DNA of 64,000 nucleotides. Origin: a phage. This document shows, in pieces, positions 661-54,285 of the stretch (the first letter of the stretch is position 1; every line of letters starts with the position of its first letter). The stretch lies in the sequence record PZ019086.1, one strand, 5' to 3'. A program made the position numbers and the translations under genes. Under the pieces are notes generated by a model that searched no databases, was not told the DNA's origin, and saw only the letters and a list, made by a program, of their open reading frames with translations.

Positions 661-1509
661 TTAATCGACTGCTATTGGATGAATAGCATTAAACTTATGA
701 AACGCTTCTGATTTTTCTTTGCGTGAAACACACATGCGAAGAACCTTTAATGGCTCGTCTTCTTCACCCAACGATTTTCTCTTTTCGATATTCGATGTTT
801 TCCAACGAGCTTGCTCTGGAAACTCTCTATTGATTTGCTCAAGAGCTCTATTATGTTTTGAATTACTACGAATTGAACTACATCCGCCAGGAGCTTGTGC
901 TTTTCCAGATACAACCAGATATTTGAACAAGGCCAAATGCGGATAACCTTGATTAATTAAATTGAGAAATGCATACATATCTTCGCATAAATCAATTTTT
1001 CCATACCCAATTTGTTCTGTCGTGAGTTTTCCAAGGTCATACCATGTATTCGTGAATCCATATGAATTTTCACGATAATTACCCCAAGATGAAGTAATTT
1101 TAAAAATTGGTAGACGAGCATGGCCATGATAATACCCACAATCCATGGCATCTTCAACGTATTGAATCAATTCATAGAACTGTTCACGAGTTAATTGATT
1201 AATTTTATCTACGCAGCGACGATCATCTTTCTTTCGCATTGAACTCATACGAATAGTAGTATCATCATCAATCATCCAAATTCGTTGACCTGCATACATA
1301 TCAGTAATTGCTTTACGAGTACCAGCAATTCCATTAACATCATCAGGAATAGTTATAATTTTAGCTCTAGATCCGTAAGCGTCATAATAAGCTTTTTCTT
1401 CATGTTCACGTACTACAATATGAGGTTCATAATCAGTCGGAAACATATCAAGGGCAGAAACTGCCGCTACGCGTTGATAGCTTGGAATTACGAATTGAAT
1501 CATTTCCAT
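661..1509 (-). CDS. GT-A type glycosyltransferase at the beta-gt locus (candidate hydroxymethylcytosine-glucose modifying transferase, not T4-type beta-gt)
   Basis: 282 aa; VIPSYQR start and DxD motif RIWMIDDDTTIR typical of GT-A/GT2 enzymes; sits between 42 and uvsX where T4 has beta-gt (351 aa) but does not resemble T4 BGT as I recall it. Confidence 0.6.
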   Translation of the reverse strand: MEMIQFVIPSYQRVAAVSALDMFPTDYEPHIVVREHEEKAYYDAYGSRAKIITIPDDVNGIAGTRKAITDMYAGQRIWMIDDDTTIRMSSMRKKDDRRCVDKINQLTREQFYELIQYVEDAMDCGYYHGHARLPIFKITSSWGNYRENSYGFTNTWYDLGKLTTEQIGYGKIDLCEDMYAFLNLINQGYPHLALFKYLVVSGKAQAPGGCSSIRSNSKHNRALEQINREFPEQARWKTSNIEKRKSLGEEDEPLKVLRMCVSRKEKSEAFHKFNAIHPIAVD

Positions 1510-7933: not shown

Positions 7934-8620
7934 TTAAAAATCGTGGGTAGAATCAGCTTCAAGAGCTACTACATAATTCGCATGTTCACCTTCAAATTTA
8001 GCAGCGCCTTGTTTACCTTTTGCCCAGAGAAGAAGTTTATAATTTCCTGGTTGCATTTTCATATTTGCCATATTGATAATGAAATTAAATGTATTTTCAC
8101 CATCATAATCACCAAGAGTCAAAGAATATTTAACACGGGTCAAAGCAGAATCTTCCACTTTATTAAAACCGTTAATTACGATTTTACCTTCTTTTACTGT
8201 GATAGCAATTGTATCAATCTGCAGACCACGAGATACACGCAACAGCTGTTGAAGGTCTTCAGCTTTAATTTCAGTAACAACAGATGCTACTGGGAATGGA
8301 ATTGGTTTATTAGGAGCAACTACTGTACTCGGATCGGCTGCTGGCCAAAAAATTGTTGAACGGGCATCAGCAATTTTAATATTACCATCTTCTGACTGGG
8401 AAATTTCTGCATCATCATTAACTAGGGACAGAATACCGAGAAAACCGTTCAAATCGTAAATTGCTACATCAAAATCAATAGTGTCAGAAATATTTGCTTC
8501 CGCATAAGTTGTACCATTAACTGCGCGAGTCATAATAAATTGACCAGATTTAAGCATAATACCAGAGTTAATAGTAGCGAAATTTTTAAGCAGAGCAGTA
8601 GTATCTTTAGACAGTTTCAT
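7934..8620 (-). CDS. 45: Sliding clamp
   Basis: 228 aa, same as T4 gp45; position. Confidence 0.9.
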   Translation of the reverse strand: MKLSKDTTALLKNFATINSGIMLKSGQFIMTRAVNGTTYAEANISDTIDFDVAIYDLNGFLGILSLVNDDAEISQSEDGNIKIADARSTIFWPAADPSTVVAPNKPIPFPVASVVTEIKAEDLQQLLRVSRGLQIDTIAITVKEGKIVINGFNKVEDSALTRVKYSLTLGDYDGENTFNFIINMANMKMQPGNYKLLLWAKGKQGAAKFEGEHANYVVALEADSTHDF

Positions 8621-8675
8621 GTAATTTCCTTCAATTCAAATGAGATTTAATTTTATAACTAATTTAATAAAGCAA

Positions 8676-9065
8676 TTAACGATTAAAATCAGCAGCAATT
8701 GTTTCAGCAACAATTTGAGCAGCAACAATTAGACGTTCATCTGCATTACCGCAATAATCATCTTCAAGGCGCTCACCACATGAAGTCATAATAAATTTGG
8801 CACCAGCATTTAGAGATTCTGCTGTATGTTTGCGCATCAGTTCAATCCATTTATTACTTACTTCACGATCGATAGCTTCATAATACGCATGACGAGCAGG
8901 TGCAGATTTAATTTTGCTCTGAATAACTTCCATCGCATTATCAGAAAGAGACAAAACCCATGCTCGACGAATTTTATTTTGGTTTTGTGGATTTGATTCA
9001 GAACGCACGTGTTTTGGCTGAATATCTTTTACATCAACAGTATAATTCACCGTAATTTTAGTCAT
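8676..9065 (-). CDS. rpbA: RNA polymerase binding protein RpbA
   Basis: 129 aa, position after 45 as in T4. Confidence 0.75.
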
Positions 9066-9074
9066 AATACACCT

Positions 9075-9266
9075 TTAGTCATAATAATCAGTAACAGTCC
9101 AAGCTTCATTTCTGTTGGACATTATTTTCGTATATTCTGATTTAAATGCATTCTTAAGCATAGATTCAGTAACTATATGCTCTTCATTAGAAAAATTATT
9201 TCTCAGAATATATCGTTTTATTTCAGGAATAGTTAATAGATGCTGTCCAGTTGAATATTCTGCCAC
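9075..9266 (-). CDS. Hypothetical small protein (45.2 position), apparent GTG start
   Basis: 63-aa ORF with GGAGG RBS before GTG; syntenic with T4 45.2. Confidence 0.55.
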   Translation of the reverse strand: MAEYSTGQHLLTIPEIKRYILRNNFSNEEHIVTESMLKNAFKSEYTKIMSNRNEAWTVTDYYD

Positions 9267-9276
9267 AGTTCCTCCG

Positions 9277-9284
9277 TATAAATA
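9277..9284 (+). promoter_or_regulatory. T4 late promoter TATAAATA upstream of the plus-strand HNH gene
   Basis: Exact TATAAATA about 34 nt upstream of the ATG at 9318; approximate. Confidence 0.5.
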
Positions 9285-9317
9285 TGTTTATCACTCGCTG
9301 TATCAAAAGGATATGTT

Positions 9318-10034
9318 ATGAATTATAAACTAATTTATGAAAAGTTAATCTCTAATGCTAAATCTCGAAAACTTGATTGCTATACTGAATCTCATCACAT
9401 TATACCACGCTGTTTAAATGGTAGCGATGATGCTTCAAACTTAGTAGATTTAACACCAGAAGAGCACTATGTAGCTCATCAACTTTTAGTAAAAATTTAT
9501 CCTTCTGAACCAAAATTAGTCTATGCTGCTAACATGATGACAGTTTCTACGAAATACGCTAAACGTAATAATAAAACTTTCGGCTGGATTCGTCGTAAAC
9601 TCTGGGAAATAGAAAAGAATAAAGAGTTCTCCCAAGAGACACGAAAGAAAATGTCCGATGCAGTAGCTAATAAAGCAAGACTAACTTGTCCACATTGCGG
9701 TAAGTCTGGATTAAGCGGGAATATGAATCGATGGCATTTTGATAACTGCCCAAATCACCCCAATCCTAAAGTTAGACCGCCAATGTCTAAAGAACACAGA
9801 AATAATATCTCAAACGGGCTTAAAGCAATCGTTCTTGAAGAAACAACCTGCGAATTCTGCGGAATGATAGGCAAGAAATGCGTTATCGCAGCGCATAGAA
9901 ATTTCTGCAAGAAAAATCCAAATGGACGCAAGAAAACTGAAAAGACTGGTACTTGCGTCCATTGTGGTAAAGTTACCACTTTCGGAAATTTATCAAGATG
10001 GCATAATGATAATTGTAAATATAAACCTAGCTAA
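9318..10034 (+). CDS. HNH-family homing-endonuclease-like protein with C-terminal zinc-finger repeats (mob-like)
   Basis: 238 aa; HNH motif ESHHIIPRCLNGSDDASNLVDLTPEEHYVAH; three CxxCG...WH..NC repeats; encoded opposite to surrounding genes between 45.2 and 46. Confidence 0.75.
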   Translation: MNYKLIYEKLISNAKSRKLDCYTESHHIIPRCLNGSDDASNLVDLTPEEHYVAHQLLVKIYPSEPKLVYAANMMTVSTKYAKRNNKTFGWIRRKLWEIEKNKEFSQETRKKMSDAVANKARLTCPHCGKSGLSGNMNRWHFDNCPNHPNPKVRPPMSKEHRNNISNGLKAIVLEETTCEFCGMIGKKCVIAAHRNFCKKNPNGRKKTEKTGTCVHCGKVTTFGNLSRWHNDNCKYKPS

Positions 10035-11715
10035 TCTTAGCTAAACTAAATCTACCAACTTTTTCCATTTGAATGTGCTGACCATATTCCTGTGGGTCAT
10101 GGTCTTTATGCGAAATTATGAAGAAGTTGGTATCCTTCAAACCATCTAAAATTTTAGCCACATTTTTAATACCTTCAGCATCAAATGCACCGTCATATAC
10201 TTCATCAAGAAATAAACAACTTATTTTAACACCTGAAACTTTTTCAGCAATATCACGCCAAGTAAATAAAAGAGCAATATCAATTCGCGCTTTTTCACCT
10301 TGACTAAATGAAGCATAACTAAAATCTTCACGACCACGGGATTTAATTGTCTCATTAAATTCTTCATCTAATGTAAACACATAATCCGCTTCCATTATTT
10401 TAAGATAATGGTTAATCTGCTTATTAAATAATGGAATGTACTTTTTAATAATAGCACCTTTAATACCAGAATCTTTGAGCATATCAGTCAAAATTCCTCT
10501 ATGGTATTTTTCCATTACTAAATTAGTTTTTGTCTTAACAATTTTATCAAGTTCTTCTTGAAGCAGTGCTATTTCATCAGCATGATCAATAAACTCAGAT
10601 GATGCTTTTTCTATAGCCGCTTTAACCTTTTTAGCTTTATCTACCGTCGTGATTAGAGATTGCTTTTTATTGCGAATATCATTCGCCAACGTCTGCTGGG
10701 TTTTAATATTATCTCGGTATTCATCAACAAGAACTTTTAAATTATCACGATGTGTTGAAAGCTGTTCAAATGAATGCGTGCATTCAGAAACTTTATCTTT
10801 AATTTTAGAAACAACTTTATCACCGGAACTTAATTGTGACAAACAGGTTGGACATAATCCACCTTCGTGATACATATTAATGACTTTATTATACGAGTCA
10901 ATTTTTGATTTAATTAAAAATGCTTCTTGACCGATTTTATCAAATGCATCAGTCGGGTCTTCATCCAAAACAATATTAACTAATCTTTCATTAGCTTCTT
11001 CTATTTCCGATTTTAACGTTCTAGCTTCTTTTGCCAAATCATCATACATATTCTGCAGACGAGTAAGGTTATCACCAGTTAATTTTTTCTGGCGTTCAAC
11101 GTTATCATTATATATTTTAATTTGTTGGATAATACTATCTTTTTTAACATCAAGCACTTGGTTTTGTGAATTTAATTCACGTATTAGTGCTTTATTAAGC
11201 TTATCCATTTCAGCTAATGTTCCTACCTCAAGCAGGTCTTCCACAAGCTTTCTTCGCGCAGGGGTCGACAAACCCATGAAAGGGGTATACCCTGCTGTAC
11301 CAAGGACAACAATCTGCTTGAAACTGGCATATGACATTCCGATAAGCTGTTCAAATTCTGCTTGGAAATCTTTACTGCTGGCAGATTCATTAAGACGTGT
11401 ACCGTTAACGGTGATTTCGAAAACGTTTGGTTTTTGTCCTCTTTTGATATAGTACTTTTTCTCATCATATTCCATCCACAGTTCAACTAAAAGTTCTTTC
11501 TTATTTGTGCTGTTTATTAATTGGCCTTTCTTTACATCACGGAATGGCTTGCCAAAAAGCCCAAATGTGATGGCTTCTAACATAGTAGACTTACCACCAC
11601 CATTTCGCCCAGTAATAAGAGTTTTTTGAACCTTATCTAATTGAATGTCAACTCCATTTTGACCAACTGACATTATATTTTTATATTTTACTCTATTAAG
11701 TTTAAATGATTTCAT
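10027..11715 (-). CDS. 46: Recombination endonuclease subunit (Rad50/SbcC-like ATPase)
   Basis: 562 aa; Walker A GRNGGGKST, long coiled coil with CPTC zinc hook, C-terminal signature/Walker B. Confidence 0.9.
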   Translation of the reverse strand: MKSFKLNRVKYKNIMSVGQNGVDIQLDKVQKTLITGRNGGGKSTMLEAITFGLFGKPFRDVKKGQLINSTNKKELLVELWMEYDEKKYYIKRGQKPNVFEITVNGTRLNESASSKDFQAEFEQLIGMSYASFKQIVVLGTAGYTPFMGLSTPARRKLVEDLLEVGTLAEMDKLNKALIRELNSQNQVLDVKKDSIIQQIKIYNDNVERQKKLTGDNLTRLQNMYDDLAKEARTLKSEIEEANERLVNIVLDEDPTDAFDKIGQEAFLIKSKIDSYNKVINMYHEGGLCPTCLSQLSSGDKVVSKIKDKVSECTHSFEQLSTHRDNLKVLVDEYRDNIKTQQTLANDIRNKKQSLITTVDKAKKVKAAIEKASSEFIDHADEIALLQEELDKIVKTKTNLVMEKYHRGILTDMLKDSGIKGAIIKKYIPLFNKQINHYLKIMEADYVFTLDEEFNETIKSRGREDFSYASFSQGEKARIDIALLFTWRDIAEKVSGVKISCLFLDEVYDGAFDAEGIKNVAKILDGLKDTNFFIISHKDHDPQEYGQHIQMEKVGRFSLAKIS

Positions 11716-11730
11716 TTTGTATCCAATTGT

Positions 11731-12585
11731 TCACAATGAAGAAAATTCTTTAACTAAAGCCTGTAATGAAGCCTCTATTGGATATCCATTCTTAACTAAC
11801 ATTTTCCTAAACATCACATGTTTAGGACGATTATATGATATCCACAATTCATACAATTTATCTTTATTATCCCAATGATAGCCTTTTCGTCGAGATGCTA
11901 TATGAGCTTTTCTAATCTCCGGATTTTTCCAACTAGCGGCTACTGAATTTGATATAGCTATTTTATATTCAGGTTTTGATAAAGCAACACGAACAGCCTT
12001 TTGGTGTTTAATTTTATTTTCTTCGTTATTAAACCATTCCCTTGAAGCCATTGAAATTTTTTGTTTTGTTTTAAAATTATTTAATCTTTCTTTGTTATCT
12101 TTCCTATTTTTTGCTACTGAAAAGTATTTTAATGCTCTTTCTCTAGCAGCATTTCTATTTTGTGGATTTGAATAATATTGTTGAAGCCTTTTTGATATTG
12201 TGTCACTTACATCTTGTTTTATAAAACTATATTCAGCAGCTATTAAATCAACTTCGGCTAAAGATAAATTTTTATATGTTTTTCCTGACATCATTCTATT
12301 TAAAGCATTTAGCATTTTTCCATTTTTACCTTTTGCTAATAAGAAATGTGCTTTAAAATGATTAAAATGACTTAAATTAACTAAATTCCATGTAGATTTT
12401 AAATATTCAGGAAATATTGATTTAGGAAGCACATGGTGTGCTTCCGTTTTACCTGGAGTTTTAACAGTTGAATTCATAGAAATAAAATTAATGTAAGACT
12501 TGGCGTCTTCTTCACTCAACGCTAATTTTTCAACTAATTCCTTTATTAAAAATTCATCATTAATGTCAAGTTTAAAATTCTTCAC
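11731..12585 (-). CDS. HNH-family endonuclease-like protein (second mob-like gene), apparent GTG start
   Basis: 284 aa; HNH motif EAHHVLPKS...NLVNLSHFNHFKAH; basic repetitive C-terminal region; inserted immediately upstream of 46. Confidence 0.65.
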   Translation of the reverse strand: MKNFKLDINDEFLIKELVEKLALSEEDAKSYINFISMNSTVKTPGKTEAHHVLPKSIFPEYLKSTWNLVNLSHFNHFKAHFLLAKGKNGKMLNALNRMMSGKTYKNLSLAEVDLIAAEYSFIKQDVSDTISKRLQQYYSNPQNRNAARERALKYFSVAKNRKDNKERLNNFKTKQKISMASREWFNNEENKIKHQKAVRVALSKPEYKIAISNSVAASWKNPEIRKAHIASRRKGYHWDNKDKLYELWISYNRPKHVMFRKMLVKNGYPIEASLQALVKEFSSL

Positions 12586-12845
12586 AAAAGATTCCTTTTA
12601 ATGTATCTTTTAGACCATTCTATCATATCATCATAATCTAAAAAGTATTCATCAAATTCAGCCATGCAAACAACACCTTGTGCTGCTTTTGATGTGATAT
12701 AAATTATTCCAACATATCTAGAATCTTCTTCGGTGTAATCAATATTTGCTACGAATTCATCGTTAATGTCAAATGTCGAAAACTTCACAGTATGCATCCT
12801 TAATACAAGATACAGCCATATCTTGTAATGATTTAGGTGTGTCAT
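12582..12845 (-). CDS. Hypothetical protein (46.1/46.2 region); start uncertain
   Basis: 87-aa ORF overlapping the next ORF by 77 nt; real start may be internal. Confidence 0.4.
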   Translation of the reverse strand: MTHLNHYKIWLYLVLRMHTVKFSTFDINDEFVANIDYTEEDSRYVGIIYITSKAAQGVVCMAEFDEYFLDYDDMIEWSKRYIKRNLL

Positions 12846-13032
12846 TATCTAAAATGTTGAAGTTAAAAGATACAGCCCAGTCAGTGCAGACCGTGACCTT
12901 TTTAATACAATTATCTTCAACCTCTAGCGGTTCAAACCAATATTCAATAATTTCTTTATGCCCAATATCATCTTTTACTTCGCATTCAAAATGCTGACTC
13001 ATCATAACATTTTTAAATTCATCAAAAGTCAT
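12769..13032 (-). CDS. Hypothetical protein (46.2 position)
   Basis: 87-aa ORF with ATG start overlapping the stop of 47. Confidence 0.5.
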   Translation of the reverse strand: MTFDEFKNVMMSQHFECEVKDDIGHKEIIEYWFEPLEVEDNCIKKVTVCTDWAVSFNFNILDNDTPKSLQDMAVSCIKDAYCEVFDI

Positions 13033-14226: not shown

Positions 14227-15427
14227 ATTTTGTAATAATGTCAAACTGTTCTTTAAAGCAGAAGCTTGAATCTTGATGCTGATACAAAAATTCATAAGCT
14301 TTTTCGCGTTCACGGTCATAAAGAGCTCGGTCAGATGACAGTTCTTTAATACGCTCAAATGTTGATTCCATGTCATTTTCATCAAACCAAACGATACCGC
14401 TATCGTGTGAAATTAACGGAGTATTATCAACACGGAATTTTAAATTTTCGCCAGTAGATTTCCAAAATACCGGAATTGTTCCACATGCACCAAGCTCGAG
14501 ATGAGTGTATTCTAAAGAACGCTGTAGATATTTTTTGTCCAACTTACTCAGCTGATAACCAAATCCGGATTTACTCATGCGTTCAAGCATTTCGCTATTT
14601 ACATAACGGTCGAGAATTTGCGTTGGCAAATTAGGAGCAATTTTAATTTGGTCTACTTGATGAAGACGATAATACTCGTATGGAATTCCTTTTTCTTTAA
14701 TAGGAATGAACGCTGGAGAACGTTCCAGACCTTCCATAATAGTACTTAGTCCTGCAGGTTTAAGATGTTTTTCGTGAAAATCAAACATCTGATAAAAACC
14801 TTTCCATGTAGTCGTACGACCAATCCAACGGTTGATATTCATGTTAATTTCAGAAACATCTTTCCAGTAGGTTGATCGAACCTTCGCAATATCCATAGGA
14901 GGCTGAAAGTTATATACGGTCGGTGCTTCTTCAATATCATCAAACAGAGAAACAGTTTCCGGATACCATTCTTTCATCAAAACTTTATTAAAGTCACCAT
15001 TATCAGAATGGCTAAAAATAACATCAGCTCGACGAACAGTTTCTTCTAATCCCAAATTTCGACGCAAAGAAAGAGAAGAATGGTCATGCTGATAAACTAC
15101 AACACGAACCGAAGGTTTAATGTTATCAATAATTTTTTTATAGTTATTAATTGTGTCTTCTTCGACTGAAGTAGCAGGAACTGAATTGATAACTAGAATA
15201 TCACAATCATTTACCAGCTTAAGCGTTTTATCGTATTCTTTTGCCAATAAAACCGGAATTGAAAATGATTTATAATCATGCGCGCAATTACGAGTAAATG
15301 ATTTATCTTTAGCATAAACCAAAGTTACTTCATGACCATTTTTAATAAACCAATCACGCTGCTCAAGAGAAAATTTAGTTACACCGCAACCTTCAAGACC
15401 TCGAGCCATAAAAATACATACTTTCAT
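14225..15427 (-). CDS. agt: DNA alpha-glucosyltransferase
   Basis: 400 aa; N-terminus MKVCIFMARGLEGCGVTKFSLEQRDWFIKNGHEVTLVYAKDKSF matches T4 AGT closely from memory. Confidence 0.9.
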   Translation of the reverse strand: MKVCIFMARGLEGCGVTKFSLEQRDWFIKNGHEVTLVYAKDKSFTRNCAHDYKSFSIPVLLAKEYDKTLKLVNDCDILVINSVPATSVEEDTINNYKKIIDNIKPSVRVVVYQHDHSSLSLRRNLGLEETVRRADVIFSHSDNGDFNKVLMKEWYPETVSLFDDIEEAPTVYNFQPPMDIAKVRSTYWKDVSEINMNINRWIGRTTTWKGFYQMFDFHEKHLKPAGLSTIMEGLERSPAFIPIKEKGIPYEYYRLHQVDQIKIAPNLPTQILDRYVNSEMLERMSKSGFGYQLSKLDKKYLQRSLEYTHLELGACGTIPVFWKSTGENLKFRVDNTPLISHDSGIVWFDENDMESTFERIKELSSDRALYDREREKAYEFLYQHQDSSFCFKEQFDIITK

Positions 15428-15476
15428 TTAATATCCTCATTGTTTTGGTTTATTTTACCAAAAATTTATAAAGCAA

Positions 15477-24104: not shown

Positions 24105-24408
24105 TTTCTTCTCGGTCAAATCGGTGTTTGCAATGACGACATTTATAGCGAAGATTACTAGTCTGCCAATGGACTAATTGAACCTGTTCAGTACCGCATT
24201 CAGGACAATTAGGAACGTTTTTAGAAGCCCTTTCGCGACGTTCAACCATAGCCATAATGGCATCCCAAGCTGGAGGTATAAAGTCTAAATCATCGCAACC
24301 ATGAATCTTTCCACGCATTTCCAGATCGTCTTCTTCACCAGCCATAATAATTTTAATTAGACTGGAATTACTTGAAGCTGCAATATCTTCTAATAAACGC
24401 TTTTTCAT
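24091..24408 (-). CDS. Zinc-ribbon protein
   Basis: 105 aa; CPECG...CRHCKH. Confidence 0.5.
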
Positions 24409-25334
24409 TTCAATACCTCAATAGCATTACGTAAACCATTTGCTTTTGCATTAAGAGCTTTTAACAATTTGGTGTGTTCGGCAATCTGGGCTTCAACTTC
24501 AACTAGTCGAGATTTGAGGTATTCACGTTCTTCACTCATGTTATCAATCTTTTCTACTTTAGGCTCTTTTACAACTGTCTTATATGTATTAGGATTCTTC
24601 AGTTTAATTAGAATACGTGAACTGTATAACATTGAACCATTATCTTCGATTTCGTCATACATTTCTACTACGTCCATGATTTTTAACATCATGCGGAGTT
24701 TATAAGACAACGAACGAATAGTTTTGTTGTGCTTATTAATTTCTCTAGATGTCATGGTGCCGAGATTACGTGAGTAATAATAAGGAACTTGGATATTAAT
24801 TAACACTGATGAACCACCTGGCTTGTGTGTTACTTCATCAGCAATAACCCAATCCTTAACATGAACTGTATTTGTACGGTCATCGCCTGCGGTAAATAGT
24901 TTACGAGCATGCTTAAAAAGCATATTCACTTGGTCATTAAATTGACAGGCAAATTTATCAGCAAATTTAGTTTCAGGAATGGTAGATAGCCAATCAGCCA
25001 AATGGGTCTTTTTAACATCGTTAACAATAGTAAATTCAACCAAATCGGTTATAGATGTTGCAGATTTAATGAAGCTTGGCTTCATAAAGTTTTTAATGTT
25101 ATCACGAGCTACAGTAGAAGATAACATACGAGAACGTTTAAACCATTCAAGCAAATTGCCTAATGAATGAGAATAGGCGTTCTGAGTATCTTTACAGATA
25201 TGATTTTCCTGGCCAATATATTGAAGGAAATCACGAAGAATATTATTGATTACTGCTCTGTGTCCGATCTGATAATTACGGTGTTTAGCAATAAGACTGT
25301 CAAAATAATCAATATAATGTTTACGAGTTTTCAT
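24405..25334 (-). CDS. Hypothetical protein with C-terminal coiled coil (nrdC.x block)
   Basis: 309 aa; ATG start. Confidence 0.6.
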   Translation of the reverse strand: MKTRKHYIDYFDSLIAKHRNYQIGHRAVINNILRDFLQYIGQENHICKDTQNAYSHSLGNLLEWFKRSRMLSSTVARDNIKNFMKPSFIKSATSITDLVEFTIVNDVKKTHLADWLSTIPETKFADKFACQFNDQVNMLFKHARKLFTAGDDRTNTVHVKDWVIADEVTHKPGGSSVLINIQVPYYYSRNLGTMTSREINKHNKTIRSLSYKLRMMLKIMDVVEMYDEIEDNGSMLYSSRILIKLKNPNTYKTVVKEPKVEKIDNMSEEREYLKSRLVEVEAQIAEHTKLLKALNAKANGLRNAIEVLK

Positions 25335-25386
25335 GTTCTTCTCACTTGGTTAATGATTTATACTCCGAGCCATCCTTGGCTTTAAA

Positions 25387-26388
25387 TTACTTAATTAACT
25401 GTAAAGCTTGTTCAAGACGATCCAGGCGATTAACAGATTCTTCCCAAATCCTTTTAGCTTGCTCATATTCTTTCTGCGCTTTATTAGAAATTTCTAGAGC
25501 TTCTTTATAAGCTTTTTCTAATGCAATAACTTCTGGACGAATTTCTACCGGTTCAGGTGAATCGTCAAGACATTCCATTAGTTCCTCAAGGGTAGTTTCT
25601 TCTTTAGGAGTATTCACAATTTCTTCACATTTTTGTTGGTAAATTTCTTTATCAGTCGGTGAGTACGCACACTTTACTTCACGAAGACTAACTACAATTT
25701 TATATCCTTCCCAACCGCATATATTCTTAAAAGGATACGTATGAATATTTTCTACTGTTTCCATACAAAGTAGTGCAGTCTCTAATTGACGAGTTATAGT
25801 GCTAGCAATTGAGAAAAATTTATTAATATTCCTTTGGTTAGTTTCTGGTGTAAAAAATCCATAATTCACAAAAATAGATACTTTATTTTTATCAAGTTCA
25901 TATTCTTTTATGATAATCATATCAGAAGCCAAAGGATGAATTTGACGATAATCGCCATAACATAATTTAGAAGCTGATTTTAGAATCTGTCCTTTGAAAA
26001 GCCTGAAATTACTAATCCAACGACGAGTAAAAATATTCTCAGGGTCTTCTTTATTATTAAGATGATAAGAATTAACATCACCGAACCAATTATATCCTAC
26101 TACATCTTTGGTTCGTTTAATTTCTTTCCCAAAATTACCAAGAATATCTCGATTAACCAAATATGAAAGAAGACGAGACTCTTTAAAGGTTTTCTTGATA
26201 ACATCTTTATCTACACGGCTAGAAATTTTACGAATTTCATGAATAAATTTAACAGAAGAAACAATACTTGCATCAACACTATTGAGCCATTGATTGATAA
26301 TAGAAATAACGCTATTTTGGCCAAACATCGGTATAGCTTTATCATCAATAACGCTATTGAATGATTTGATATATTCGTTACGAGTCAT
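25387..26388 (-). CDS. Hypothetical protein with C-terminal coiled coil
   Basis: Start moved from track GTG to ATG at 26388 with GAGGAG RBS. Confidence 0.6.
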   Translation of the reverse strand: MTRNEYIKSFNSVIDDKAIPMFGQNSVISIINQWLNSVDASIVSSVKFIHEIRKISSRVDKDVIKKTFKESRLLSYLVNRDILGNFGKEIKRTKDVVGYNWFGDVNSYHLNNKEDPENIFTRRWISNFRLFKGQILKSASKLCYGDYRQIHPLASDMIIIKEYELDKNKVSIFVNYGFFTPETNQRNINKFFSIASTITRQLETALLCMETVENIHTYPFKNICGWEGYKIVVSLREVKCAYSPTDKEIYQQKCEEIVNTPKEETTLEELMECLDDSPEPVEIRPEVIALEKAYKEALEISNKAQKEYEQAKRIWEESVNRLDRLEQALQLIK

Positions 26389-32842: not shown

Positions 32843-33364
32843 TTATCCTTTCATTGAAGGTGTAACAGTTGTTAAATACTTAATCATAGCTTCAGCTTCT
32901 GATTTTGATAATGAAATTTCTCCATTGTTTTGACGAATAGAAATAAAATCCGGATGACGGTCACCACCAGCTTTTAAAACACACATGTAAGTATCAACTT
33001 CGCCTTCAATATTTGAAATGATTGAAGCAGTTCCACATGAATGTGGTTGTTGATAAACTAATACAGCTTTTCTTCCACCGTTTGACTGTTCATAAACTTT
33101 TAACACATCAAACAAATCACTTCTTTTATCAATAGCTAAGATGTTGTTTTCATCTTCAATGTTAAATCCTTCGGATATTTCATAAAGTGTCACCCATAAA
33201 TCGCCAATATCAATGACAGCATTCACCTTTCCATGATTTTCAAGAGCATTACAAATTTTCTTAATTTCATCATAACTCATTTTAATAATATCATCTCCTT
33301 GAATAAAGAAGATGTCATTTTTAAATTCAACGCGAATTAAACCACTTTCACTTGAAATAAACAT
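32843..33364 (-). CDS. Hypothetical protein, paralog A of a tandem pair
   Basis: 173 aa; shares GFNIE-E and C-terminal IRQ...L-K-EA--L-KYL--V-P-M pattern with the adjacent 183-aa protein. Confidence 0.6.
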   Translation of the reverse strand: MFISSESGLIRVEFKNDIFFIQGDDIIKMSYDEIKKICNALENHGKVNAVIDIGDLWVTLYEISEGFNIEDENNILAIDKRSDLFDVLKVYEQSNGGRKAVLVYQQPHSCGTASIISNIEGEVDTYMCVLKAGGDRHPDFISIRQNNGEISLSKSEAEAMIKYLTTVTPSMKG

Positions 33365-34170: not shown

Positions 34171-34356
34171 TTATTCACCAATTAAAGTTTCAATATAAGA
34201 ATCAAGATTTACTTTAGCTTCTTCCATAAGAGTTTTGTATTTAATCTTATTAGCATGTCCGGAGAAAGCTGATTCATCAATAACTGTTGATGCATGAACA
34301 GCTTTACTATACATCTCAATTAATTCTCTTAATTTAAAAGCCTGCTCACTTGTCAT
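34171..34356 (-). CDS. Hypothetical small helical protein
   Basis: 61 aa; ATG start overlapping upstream small-ORF stop. Confidence 0.5.
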   Translation of the reverse strand: MTSEQAFKLRELIEMYSKAVHASTVIDESAFSGHANKIKYKTLMEEAKVNLDSYIETLIGE

Positions 34357-34460
34357 TACATGCTCCTTTGAATAATATCAATAATGTTGTTCACCAGATT
34401 ATAAGTAAACATTGGGTAATTATATTGAATCATCACATACACAACAAACAAAACTTTCAT
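34356..34460 (-). CDS. Small hydrophobic peptide (34 aa), not in ORF track
   Basis: ATG with AGGAGAAGAGA RBS just downstream of an early promoter; TAATG overlap with next gene; approximate. Confidence 0.35.
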   Translation of the reverse strand: MKVLFVVYVMIQYNYPMFTYNLVNNIIDIIQRSM

Positions 34461-34484
34461 TCTCTTCTCCTTGGCAGTTGGCAA

Positions 34485-34520
34485 GATTACTATATCATAA
34501 CCTTGCCAACTTGTAAACCA
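34485..34520 (-). promoter_or_regulatory. T4-type early promoter (internal to the island)
   Basis: Minus-strand GGTTTACAAGTTGGCAAGGTTATGATATAGTAAT; approximate. Confidence 0.5.
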
Positions 34521-34676
34521 TTAAATGACGTTTTCAATAAAATTCTGGAGTTTTGTGTGAGCATCAACCATGATTTTCATTTCTTCCTTTGCAAAAGCTA
34601 TGCCTCTTTCCCTAGAAGAACACTCATAGTCAGAAACTGCATTAGCATATTCTTCAATTAGCTTCATTAAAAACAT
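34521..34676 (-). CDS. Small protein (about 51 aa), not in ORF track
   Basis: Minus-strand ORF MFLMKLIEEYANAVSDYEC...; approximate. Confidence 0.3.
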   Translation of the reverse strand: MFLMKLIEEYANAVSDYECSSRERGIAFAKEEMKIMVDAHTKLQNFIENVI

Positions 34677-37670: not shown

Positions 37671-38121
37671 AATCCACCACTATTAAATCAATATCAGGAG
37701 TAAACATGTCGATTAATTTAGAAACCTTATCCCAATCACCGCCAGCAATACCACAACCTATGCGTGGAATGTAAATTACTGGTTTAAACAAAAGGGTCTC
37801 TGCCTGTAGATTTAATTCTATCATGCAGTTTACTAAAGCACCATAATCAAGATTAGGACCCGGTTCGTATTGCGTATACAGGTTATAGCATATACCAAAT
37901 CCTGTAGGATTATGTTTAAAAACAATAGACATATCGCCTAATTTATCACGAGAACCGTACTCAGTAGTGGTTTTATCTATTTCTAAAATTTTGGGATAGG
38001 CTCTTGCTAATTGACCTGCTACGCCAGAGCCCATTGTGTGAAAACAGTTGCACCCGTGCGCAATAATATTACCTTGAAGAAATAGGGCGACAATATCGCC
38101 CTTGATATATTTTACAATCAT
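37642..38121 (-). CDS. Macro-domain protein (ADP-ribose binding/processing)
   Basis: 159 aa; motifs IAHGCNCFHTMGSGVAGQLARAYP and PRIGCGIAGGDWDKV resemble macro-domain glycine-rich loops. Confidence 0.65.
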   Translation of the reverse strand: MIVKYIKGDIVALFLQGNIIAHGCNCFHTMGSGVAGQLARAYPKILEIDKTTTEYGSRDKLGDMSIVFKHNPTGFGICYNLYTQYEPGPNLDYGALVNCMIELNLQAETLLFKPVIYIPRIGCGIAGGDWDKVSKLIDMFTPDIDLIVVDYESTLPASV

Positions 38122-38465
38122 CTAGTACTCAATCCTCGATTATAAGAATCTACCAAACGGTCAACCATTGAATGACAAGCGGCTTTATCTTTCTCCTCCG
38201 CAACTGAACATTCTAAGGTATTCCACTTTTTAGCATATCGTTTTAATAATGTATCGTTTTTGTATCTGCTTGATTTATCTCTTTCTCCGTCTTTATATGC
38301 ATATATTAATTTCTGCGCAAATTCAGCTTGGCATGCTTTATTTTTCCCACAATAATCCGCGGCAGTACGGTTTACATATTCTCTAATTTCAGTATATGAT
38401 GTATCTGCTGACGCAGAAGCAGAAAATGAAATTAATCCTACACATAAAACCAAAATTTTAGTCAT
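38118..38465 (-). CDS. vs: Valyl-tRNA synthetase modifier (secreted small protein)
   Basis: 115 aa with signal peptide; length and position as T4 vs. Confidence 0.65.
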   Translation of the reverse strand: MTKILVLCVGLISFSASASADTSYTEIREYVNRTAADYCGKNKACQAEFAQKLIYAYKDGERDKSSRYKNDTLLKRYAKKWNTLECSVAEEKDKAACHSMVDRLVDSYNRGLSTR

Positions 38466-39003
38466 TTACTATTTCCAACAGTTTATTATTTTTAAGGTAG
38501 TTAGCCTTTTCTAGGACTTCAGAAGCATATTTAGAACCTGCTTTAACATTCCATCCCGAATTATAAGAGGATATTGCTTTTCTTATATCGCCCTTATGTA
38601 TATTTAACCAATAAGAAAGTTCAATGTATGCCCAGGAAGCTGAATTGGACCGTTTATTCAACATTCTTTTTATTTCAGCATCAGTCATATTATAACCAAG
38701 TTCCTTAACTCTTGCTCGCATGGTTGGCAAATAATTTTGGAACATTCCGTAGGCGTGATGCTTTGGTTTAGATTTTAAATTAACTCCGGCAGAGCTTTCT
38801 TGCCATAAAATAGCAGCCATTATATGACCCAATCCGCTCTTGTGGATATTTTTGTGTGTTTTATATTTTCCATCCTTAGAAAATTGTTCCCCGAATTGAT
38901 ATGCGTAGCGCATGTTATCGAGTTGGACATTACTGAAAGTATGCTCGGAGCTATGTGCCATCATTGAAATGGCCAATAGACCAGCGAGTAGTGCTTTTCT
39001 CAT
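38458..39003 (-). CDS. Soluble lytic transglycosylase-like protein (vs.1)
   Basis: 181 aa; signal peptide; SLT motif ILWQESSAG...YGMFQ. Confidence 0.7.
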   Translation of the reverse strand: MRKALLAGLLAISMMAHSSEHTFSNVQLDNMRYAYQFGEQFSKDGKYKTHKNIHKSGLGHIMAAILWQESSAGVNLKSKPKHHAYGMFQNYLPTMRARVKELGYNMTDAEIKRMLNKRSNSASWAYIELSYWLNIHKGDIRKAISSYNSGWNVKAGSKYASEVLEKANYLKNNKLLEIVND

Positions 39004-41525: not shown

Positions 41526-41684
41526 TTTGTTCTCTCTAAGTTTGGGCCATTCCGTGGCGCATGAATTGTCCATTTCTGTATTTACCCATTACCGCACTTG
41601 GGCTCGACCTTATTACAGGTTGGCGGGAATCCCTCACAGAATCATGAGGTCCAGCTTGTTCCCATTTTATTTGAATGTAAATAG

Positions 41685-41702
41685 GCCTATACTTAGGCCT
41701 TA
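41685..41702 (-). terminator. Hairpin after ipIII
   Basis: aggcctatacttaggcct; approximate. Confidence 0.4.
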
Positions 41703-42281
41703 TTAATTACCACGGGCCGCATTAGCAACGGCGTAAGCATACTGAACATTAGCGTCTTTAAATGTACCTTTAGAGGTATCTATTTCTGCCTTAAAGCCGC
41801 CTTTAGCCATAACATCGGCGAATTCTTTACGGAAAGCCATTGCATCGAGACCTTTCCATGATGATTTATGCTTGGCAAATTCAAGACCTGCGAAGTTGAC
41901 AGCTTTAGCCAATTTATTATCAATGACCCATTTACCGGCTTTAGGCACAAACTTCGGGCCTTTTTGTTTAGAGAACAGTTTTAAATTCCAGCGACGAAGA
42001 TCACTGTCGGCTTTAACAAAAGCTGCGTCTAAGTTACTAGCAACAACATCTTCAATATGAGCAAATTTAAGTCCGTCAACTTCAATATTTAAATCGGTAC
42101 GCCAGCGAAGTCCTTCCCAAGCGAAAGCTTTAAAATCGGAAGCTTTTGTAGCTAAGTATCGTTCAATAGGGGCTGTTTTAGGGTCAAAGCCGTTTCCACC
42201 ACGATAGTTCCACTCGTCCTTATTAATGCCTTTGGCCTTTACTACAGAAGCTTCAGCAATAAATTCTTGATACGTTTTCAT
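41703..42281 (-). CDS. ipIII: Internal protein III (capsid-targeted)
   Basis: 192 aa; N-terminal capsid targeting sequence MKTYQEFIAEA. Confidence 0.85.
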   Translation of the reverse strand: MKTYQEFIAEASVVKAKGINKDEWNYRGGNGFDPKTAPIERYLATKASDFKAFAWEGLRWRTDLNIEVDGLKFAHIEDVVASNLDAAFVKADSDLRRWNLKLFSKQKGPKFVPKAGKWVIDNKLAKAVNFAGLEFAKHKSSWKGLDAMAFRKEFADVMAKGGFKAEIDTSKGTFKDANVQYAYAVANAARGN

Positions 42282-54277: not shown

Positions 54278-54285
54278 TATAAATA
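54278..54285 (+). promoter_or_regulatory. T4 late promoter TATAAATA for gene 53
   Basis: TATAAATA about 29 nt upstream of the 53 ATG; approximate. Confidence 0.55.

Follow-up and report, generated by a model that had tools for sequence, protein, structure and literature searches.

The junction of genes 45.2 and 46 in a T4-like phage raises a simple question: what is a single gene doing there, reading against its neighbours? The DNA analysed (the window, 64,000 nucleotides of the phage sequence record PZ019086.1) is a Tequatrovirus segment colinear with T4 from ~24 kb onward, and the gene at issue encodes a protein of 238 residues. Its best explanation, in which we place considerable confidence, is that it is a free-standing Mob-family HNH homing endonuclease gene (HEG, used below for this gene unless another is named), active and selfish, with a late promoter of its own. 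An earlier reading of the window, made from its letters only, had proposed a free-standing mob-like homing endonuclease, and homology, architecture, locus comparison and distribution all uphold that proposal. T-even phages are rich in Mob and Seg endonuclease genes. The protein is already annotated in public records, but is an uncharacterised member of a known Mob type; a full-text literature search found no paper on an endonuclease at the 45.2/46 junction, and a review of T4 mobile elements mentions neither gene 46 nor 45.2 (PMC2988022).

The N-terminus of the protein is a Mob-type nuclease domain. The HNH motif ESHHIIPRCLNGSDDASNLVDLTPEEHYVAH occupies residues 24-54, and E24, H26, H27, N41, H50 and H54 are the same in all 47 sequences of a family alignment taken from 2,304 homologues. 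Comparison with the T4 Mob proteins, a check suggested by the earlier reading, gave BLASTP matches over the HNH domain to MobB (44% identity over 126 residues), MobE (42.5% over 120 residues), MobD (53% over 75 residues) and MobC (37%), with E values from 3e-29 to 7e-22. The N-terminus MNYxxIYxxLI is common to the HEG and T4 MobB-E, and the proteins can be aligned from residue 1. The N-terminal domain, the catalytic residues and the sporadic, free-standing presence of the gene place it in the Mob family (MobA-E; PHROG 655). The gene is intergenic, which sets it apart from I-TevIII as an intron-encoded enzyme, and a search of Rfam over positions 8000-13000 returned no intron or other RNA family at threshold. 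The same search gave a match to RAGATH-8 inside the coding region (9923-9961, plus strand); it scored 21.5 bits where the gathering score is 86.7 (E=0.014) and was taken as chance.

Three putative zinc fingers follow the nuclease domain. The sequence-only reading had described an HNH nuclease with three C-terminal CxxC...WH...C repeats; the HNH domain and the three fingers stand, as does the W-H pair in fingers 1 and 3, but finger 2 has A-H and one residue fewer. Its spacing (X11) accordingly falls one residue below the published CX2CX12-13HX3C range of the I-TevIII fingers, which bind zinc and are required for DNA binding (PMC1865063). Across the family alignment, no variation occurs in the ligands of finger 3 (C213, C216, H229 and C233). 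Residues 174-234 match residues 35-92 of the T4 I-TevIII remnant at 40% identity over 63 residues (E=8e-8), and fingers 2 and 3 match positions 199-265 of the 269 in phrog_12324 (E=1.7e-8). Between the nuclease and the last fingers, Pfam placed NUMOD3 at residues 103-115 with an E value of 0.14, under its cut-off; a precomputed PF07460 hit is present in most homologues. An AlphaFold2 (AF2) model built with the family alignment (mean predicted local distance difference test score, pLDDT, 91.7) contains a beta-beta-alpha nuclease core, a helical region with helices at residues 106-117 and 158-170, and three beta-beta-alpha fingers. The high-pLDDT beta-beta-alpha fold predicted for each finger is compatible with zinc and DNA binding and with dimerisation. 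A sequence search of the PDB gave no match below E=0.17. By sequence and model, the architecture is that of a Mob HNH domain joined to an I-TevIII-like finger array.

Comparison with T4 delimits the insertion. The window carries 786 bp (9261-10046) in place of 72 bp of T4 (33244-33315), a segment made up of the 45.2 start codon, a 55-bp spacer and the final 14 nt of gene 46. At this locus in T4, gene 45.2 ends at 33246 and gene 46 starts at 33302, with no gene in the spacer between them, in agreement with the earlier claim of an insertion between 45.2 and 46 at a place that is empty in T4. The left end of the cassette contains or borders the start codon of 45.2 and its Shine-Dalgarno sequence; here 45.2 begins with GTG instead of the ATG of T4 and gains one additional codon. 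At the right edge, gp46 ends in ...GRFSLAKIS versus ...GRFTVMV in T4. The 3'-3' overlap of the HEG and gene 46 recurs, at 4-23 nt, in phages NHEP10, leB, phiKp_1 and Roth78.Table 1 Features of the 45.2/46 junction in the window and the basis on which each was placed.
Feature	Position	Strand	Basis or detail
T4 late-promoter motif TATAAATA	9277..9284	+	Exact octamer, 33 nt before the ATG
Leader	9285..9317	+	TATC-N8-TATCAAA (9289-9307) and ribosome-binding site AAGGA (9307-9311); upstream alignment of six lineages
Homing endonuclease gene (HEG)	9318..10034	+	Open reading frame with ATG start, 238 aa; PHROG 655 'homing endonuclease', E=1.2e-68
N-terminal nuclease domain (HNH, Mob type), aa 1-115	9318..9662	+	Catalytic core aa 24-54, nt 9387-9479
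Two NUMOD3-like helices, aa 103-115 and 156-168, flanking finger 1	9624..9821	+	Pfam, model
Putative zinc finger 1, aa 124-144, CPHCGKSGLSGNMNRWHFDNC (CX2CX12HX3C)	9687..9749	+	Regular expression on the translation; beta-beta-alpha in the model
Putative zinc finger 2, aa 178-197, CEFCGMIGKKCVIAAHRNFC (CX2CX11HX3C)	9849..9908	+	Regular expression, model; aligns with I-TevIII finger 1
Putative zinc finger 3, aa 213-233, CVHCGKVTTFGNLSRWHNDNC (CX2CX12HX3C)	9954..10016	+	Regular expression, model, I-TevIII alignment
Cassette relative to T4	9261..10046		blastn of window against T4: homology stops at 9260, restarts at 10047
Gene 45.2	9075-9266	-	PHROG 1045, E=1e-32; left of the HEG, alongside rpbA
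Gene 46 (Rad50/SbcC-like recombination nuclease subunit)	10027-11715	-	Right of the HEG
Convergent stop overlap, 8 nt	10027..10034		HEG TAA at 10032-10034; gene 46 TAG (minus) at 10027-10029
Diverged 3' patch of gene 46, HEG-linked	10047..10299	-	Identity bins, fixed differences, allele counts

The claim that this is the only plus-strand gene in a 54-kb minus-strand block was confirmed, the HEG being the sole supported plus-strand gene before 54.3 kb. Three other plus-strand open reading frames (ORFs) of at least 50 residues before 54,300 are not mostly covered by minus-strand ORFs (339-626, 34350-34661 and 41527-41706), and none of them matched a PHROG family; nor did six further plus-strand ORFs of at least 100 residues before 54,300. 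The T4 annotation over the equivalent region consists of minus-strand genes only. The AT skew is positive (+0.15 to +0.27) over 9400-9999 only, as is expected of a plus-strand gene. The earlier reading let its feature begin at 9277, where the promoter motif does lie; the gene itself starts at the ATG at 9318.

The distribution of the gene is that of a homing element. By megablast, 60 of the 656 phage records that matched have the whole cassette at this junction, at 97-99% identity, and the HEG ORF is full-length in 60 records at 95-100% identity. Proteins 99% identical to that of the window are labelled 'homing endonuclease' in many phage records, the label occurring in RefSeq and GenBank and including the classical phage RB68. 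Further afield, tblastn recovered full-length orthologues at 57-65% identity in Dhakavirus Bp7, the unclassified Klebsiella phage Roth78 and phage NHEP10, whose flanks match Mosigvirus AV114 at 98%, and orthologues at 42-44% identity in Pseudotevenvirus leB and Slopekvirus phiKp_1. All of these lie between a 45.2 homologue and gene 46, convergent with gene 46 and with stops overlapping or abutting. Filled and empty sites are both found in Slopekvirus, Mosigvirus and Tequatrovirus. Among records with flanks at least 90% identical, the site is filled in 66 of ~114 that are Slopekvirus-like, Miro having a clean empty site with flanks 98.7% identical, and in 14 of ~157 that are Mosigvirus-like, AV114 being empty; among T4-like loci in IMG/VR, 1 of 30 is filled.

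We examined the age of the lineage by comparing pairwise identities of the HEG with those of gp46 among eight carriers. The two are correlated (Pearson r=0.90, Spearman 0.76), and no pair of carriers has an HEG much more similar than its gp46. One discordance was seen: the NHEP10 HEG is 68% identical to that of Dhakavirus and 57% to that of Tequatrovirus, an order reversed for gp46 (67% versus 81%). Since the divergence of the HEG parallels that of gp46, the lineage is an old resident of the locus that has persisted as a presence/absence polymorphism, rather than a newcomer. The sequence-only reading had taken the insertion as a mark of recent mobile-element activity. This view is too simple, given at least five further lineages at the same junction and the parallel with gp46. 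Recent homing within Tequatrovirus is compatible with these data.

Several side observations concern the same junction in other phages (L-numbers denote comparison sequences). The Klebsiella phage vB_KM5a1-KLB1 (Slopekvirus) holds an unrelated HNH_3 and AP2 endonuclease gene there, on the minus strand (L093 1845-2399), which makes the junction a hot spot for two HEG families, with three allelic states in one genus. Beside the orthologous HEG of Bp7, gene 46 (L086 3400-4900) is annotated as two coding-sequence fragments and its translated frame ends early; the break may be a sequencing error or real damage. The T4 empty-site spacer (T4 33264-33298; L001 5265-5299) contains an inverted repeat, AGAGATTAT...ATAATCTCT, in the same stretch as a match of 25 of 35 positions to HEG codons 2-13. 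As an HEG remnant this match was rejected, 5.8% of shuffles being equal; the likeness could reflect a lost copy or chance. No HEG remnant was found in the empty sites of AV114 and Miro.

The 3' end of gene 46 next to the HEG is diverged in carriers. Identity to T4 in 100-bp bins falls to 77-87% over 10047-10299, compared with 94-100% in the left flank and 91-100% in gene 46 beyond 10300. Three carrier and six non-carrier Tequatrovirus sequences are separated by 22 fixed differences, all within 10053-10218. The 251-bp patch allele is bimodal in its distribution, with at least 95% identity in 60 records, 90-95% in 3 and less than 90% in ~1,010. At the protein level, the gp46 end ...HLQMKKVGRFTVM(V/E)-stop is near-invariant across non-carriers of many genera and altered in every carrier allele, and ...YGQHLQMKKVGRFTVM(V/E)-stop is almost constant in non-carriers though gp46 is otherwise 56-95% identical. 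Of 111 columns, the one that best separates the two groups is the first position of the Leu codon that follows His, which is C in 20 of 25 unique non-carrier sequences and in 0 of 8 from carriers (Fisher 9e-5); the change is synonymous, CTT to TTA or TTG, in three lineages. Recurrent changes in the GRFT codons of carrier alleles are CGA to AGA (synonymous) and ACN to AGT or TCN.

This pattern has a precedent. MobE nicks 122-126 nt inside T2 nrdB, where it binds a conserved block, and carriers are protected by polymorphisms at the nick position (PMC2790892). The linked patch and the altered gp46 codons resemble the MobE pattern, and on this analogy the target of the HEG is predicted within ~T4 33316-33350, inside the 3' end of gene 46. 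The predicted immune version is centred on 10053-10077, with CATTTGAATGTG at 10066-10077 facing T4 CATTTGAAGATG at 33335-33346.

The gene is preceded by an octamer identical to the T4 late-promoter motif. T4-type late promoters consist of an octamer at about -10 and need no -35 element. The motif TATAAATA lies 1 nt from the Shine-Dalgarno sequence of 45.2 (TCCTCC, 9270-9275, other strand). From its density in the window, ~0.5% of 60-nt upstream stretches would hold it by chance. It recurs 33-45 nt before the ATG of the orthologues from Tequatrovirus, Dhakavirus, Roth78 and Mosigvirus, and C/TTAAATA, with the TAAATA core, is found at the equivalent place in those of Pseudotevenvirus and Slopekvirus. 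It is this conservation across orthologues that makes the late promoter credible, and the exact T4 late promoter noted by the earlier reading is upheld on both counts. A further copy, at 54278-54285, precedes the opening plus-strand ORF of the late block (54314) by 28 nt, a spacing similar to that of the HEG. No better or convincing sigma-70-type promoter was found upstream of the HEG on the plus strand.

The leader beyond the octamer has features of its own. The motif TATC-N7/8-(T/C)ATCAAA is kept in six lineages (the window; L006, L086-L090) despite proteins at 42-65% identity. A hairpin sequestering the ribosome-binding site, or any other leader hairpin, was considered and rejected, RNAalifold having returned no consensus pairs in eight upstream regions; one member of that set (L007) was entered with wrong coordinates, and the other seven were also without structure.

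Taken with the precedents of MobE and I-TevIII, these features suggest the following course of homing. Late in infection, transcription of the HEG would start at its own gp55-type promoter and run against all the early and middle genes around it. The tail of NUMOD3-like helices and fingers would bind the final ~45 bp of gene 46, which are highly conserved, in a co-infecting genome with an empty 45.2/46 junction, and the HNH (beta-beta-alpha-metal) domain would nick or cut at the gene 46 end. The break would be resected, and the phage recombination machinery would then repair it with the HEG-carrying genome as template; co-conversion would bring the HEG and ~50-250 bp of neighbouring gene 46 sequence into the recipient. 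The carrier would itself be immune through substitutions at its own site, several of them synonymous, and the rewritten gp46 C-terminus. In T4 intron homing, the gp46/47 nuclease is required for resection. Cleavage and exclusion of co-infecting relatives, also envisaged by the earlier reading, may be expected by analogy with MobE and I-TevIII (PMC2790892, PMC1865063).

Several points weigh against this reading. Pfam HNH (PF01844) scores 16.9 bits against a curated cut-off of 21.4 (E=0.0073) and is thus sub-threshold; the low score reflects the distance of the Mob subgroup from the Pfam seed, the motif itself being intact. The octamer TATAAATA is not enriched in the window, with 9 copies found against 10.1 expected. 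The number of records with the patch allele (60) equals that of records with the HEG (60), but this is a match of counts and not record by record. The codon association comes from 8 carrier and 25 non-carrier unique sequences that are phylogenetically related, and reaches only p~0.01 after correction for 111 columns. Finally, this part of gene 46 is mosaic even among non-carriers, with a third haplotype in L098 and L100, and some of the patch divergence may be unrelated to the HEG.

A more ambitious version of the homing account can also be put forward, though we consider it doubtful. It holds that a single HEG lineage and a single target, the C-terminal codons of the Rad50-like gene 46, have stayed together while at least six Straboviridae lineages diverged, the HEG still being polymorphic for presence in those lineages that were checked. 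The unusual arrangement, convergent, with overlapping stop codons and driven by a late promoter, would on this view be more than packaging, and the HEG would have a regulatory or competitive role exercised via late antisense transcription, the rewritten gp46 C-terminus or the leader motif. If true, such a role would explain long persistence without fixation or loss.

The gene might alternatively be a relic that is no longer mobile, retained through entanglement with its neighbours (the start and Shine-Dalgarno context of 45.2, the gp46 end and a possible embedded middle promoter for 45.2-rpbA-45), such that deletion would be costly. The cassette edge does carry the GTG start of 45.2 and abuts its Shine-Dalgarno sequence, the gp46 stop lies inside the 3' end of the HEG, and HEG divergence tracks that of the host genes. 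There is, moreover, a MotA-box middle-promoter-like site within the HEG and antisense to it (TGCTTTA-N13-TATTAT, 9802-9827, minus strand), directed toward 45.2-rpbA-45; the pattern is enriched in the window (12 versus 2.5 expected) and biased to the minus strand (9 of 12). Embedded promoters that favour retention of an HEG have been described for T4 segA, segE, segG, mobB and mobC (PMC2988022). The site is, however, confined to Tequatrovirus copies and missing from the orthologues of other genera, and was rejected as a conserved feature. Clean empty sites in Slopekvirus, Mosigvirus and Tequatrovirus, with flanks 97-99% identical, further indicate that loss or absence is viable, and catalytic and zinc ligands are invariant across distant homologues. 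A relic is for these reasons quite unlikely.

Less likely again is a domesticated nuclease or regulator that benefits the phage, by late antisense shutdown of gene 46 or as an I-TevI-like DNA-binding repressor. No intrinsic terminator was seen downstream of the HEG on the plus strand, and late transcripts could consequently enter gene 46 antisense; the gene is long stable at its locus, and the conserved leader motif has no explanation in RNA folding. I-TevI is known to repress its own expression by binding to an operator that overlaps its late promoter (PMC2988022). An operator of this kind resembling the homing site was looked for in three genera by aligning the HEG upstream region locally, in either orientation, with the sequence of the empty site and the end of gene 46, and was rejected: the upstream region is unlike the putative target, 34-77% of shuffles scoring as well. 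Most relatives are without the gene, so that no essential function depends on it, and the conservation of nuclease residues argues for cleavage as the selected activity. That the frame is a chance or mis-oriented ORF and not a gene has virtually no probability left. The otherwise unused strand and the sub-threshold Pfam domain hits speak for such a reading, but it is refuted by 2,304 homologues, a PHROG match at E=1e-68, an N-terminus shared with T4 MobB-E from residue 1, an AT skew that fits a plus-strand gene, a confident model and the absence of the region from T4.

Other parts of the window contain further differences from T4 in mobile and modification genes. A second Mob-like HNH gene (11731-12585, minus strand, 284 residues; PHROG 655, E=8e-45; MobD 30%) is a pure insertion of ~860 bp that separates gene 46 from an intact 46.1, and it opens with six codons (MKNFKL) that copy the gene-46 N-terminus of T4. 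In this phage, gene 46 therefore has an HEG on either side. The second gene is present in 72 of 528 matching records with a distribution independent of that of the 9318 gene (phage teqhal has the 9318 gene only), and no diverged patch adjoins it. Kinship of the two HNH genes was considered and rejected: they resemble each other only within the HNH motif (E=8e-5) and are distributed independently. T4 mobB (T4 37817-38679) is absent from the window, which joins its flanks at 15418-15443 with ~25 bp between. At the left end, ORF 661-1509 (minus strand) matches beta-glucosyl-HMC alpha-glucosyltransferase (PHROG 842, E=8e-89) and lies beside an ORF the size of gene 42 (1500-2240), at the place where T4 has beta-gt (24400-25455) just before gene 42. 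This would point to DNA glucosylation of the T2/T6 type, not the T4 type, in the source phage.

An HEG on its own adds little, the gene being already labelled 'homing endonuclease' in RefSeq and GenBank. What the locus offers is a clean natural system: filled and empty alleles in Tequatrovirus, Mosigvirus and Slopekvirus, same-site orthologues in three further lineages and an unrelated HNH-AP2 competitor at the junction. The predicted target is compact and lies within the gene for the nuclease that resects homing breaks. To our knowledge, I-TevIII is the only phage CCHC-finger endonuclease to have been studied biochemically, and the three-finger tail of the HEG is related to it. The locus could be used to follow long-term co-evolution of an HEG and its target, and finger number in relation to site length. 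For annotation, the HEG would explain a local mosaic boundary in gene 46.

Among known enzymes, MobE of T4, encoded between nrdA and nrdB (Wilson & Edgell 2009, PMC2790892), provides the closest comparison in several respects. Both proteins have the N-terminal Mob HNH domain and both genes are free-standing between conserved genes. The predicted target of the HEG, like that of MobE, is inside a neighbouring conserved gene with protective polymorphisms, those of MobE having been mapped in T2 nrdB. The HEG is covered over residues 1-238 at 35-36% identity in the mobE regions of T4-like phages (tblastn), and full-length MobE homologues follow the same plan of HNH domain, NUMOD3-like linker and CCHC finger, with one finger versus three in the HEG. 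As a side observation, T4 nrdB.1 (T4 139716-140416; L005 4717-5417) encodes a CX2CX12HX3C finger (CPHCGKKVNKGNALRWHYDKC) colinear with the C-termini of the HEG and of full-length MobE homologues; from its sequence, nrdB.1 is apparently a frame-shifted tail of mobE and not a separate gene. The HEG differs from mobE in its locus (45.2/46), in its orientation opposite to its neighbours and in having its own late-promoter motif, mobE being promoterless and co-transcribed (PMC2790892; PMC2988022).

The fingers, in turn, resemble those of I-TevIII, an intron-encoded HNH enzyme of phage RB3 (Robbins et al. 2007, PMC1865063). They are of the same type, fingers 2 and 3 being colinear with the two of I-TevIII, and a late promoter is common to both genes, as a motif in the case of the HEG. 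Unlike I-TevIII, the HEG is not intron-encoded, its HNH domain is of the Mob type and it has one additional finger. I-TevIII dimerises and makes a double-strand break (PMC1865063), whereas MobE nicks (PMC2790892). The nuclease domain finds its best BLAST matches in T4 MobB and MobD, but the C-terminal halves of these proteins are unrelated to the finger array and their genes are on the strand of their neighbours.

The arrangement of the promoter can be compared with that of Aeh1 mobE and the T4 intron HEGs, in which a late promoter immediately ahead of the endonuclease ORF restricts expression to late infection (Edgell, Gibb & Belfort 2010, PMC2988022). Those genes are in the sense orientation within early or middle units and have hairpins that sequester the ribosome-binding site; the HEG is antisense, and no leader hairpin is predicted. 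Four differences separate the HEG from the mob genes of T4, namely its locus, its three fingers, its antisense orientation and its own putative late promoter. The T4 mob genes are mostly promoterless and sense-oriented, and it has been pointed out that a promoter in the opposite orientation would give rise to antisense transcripts (PMC2988022). The HEG at the 45.2/46 junction, with its conserved late-promoter motif, presents a case of just such an opposite-oriented promoter.

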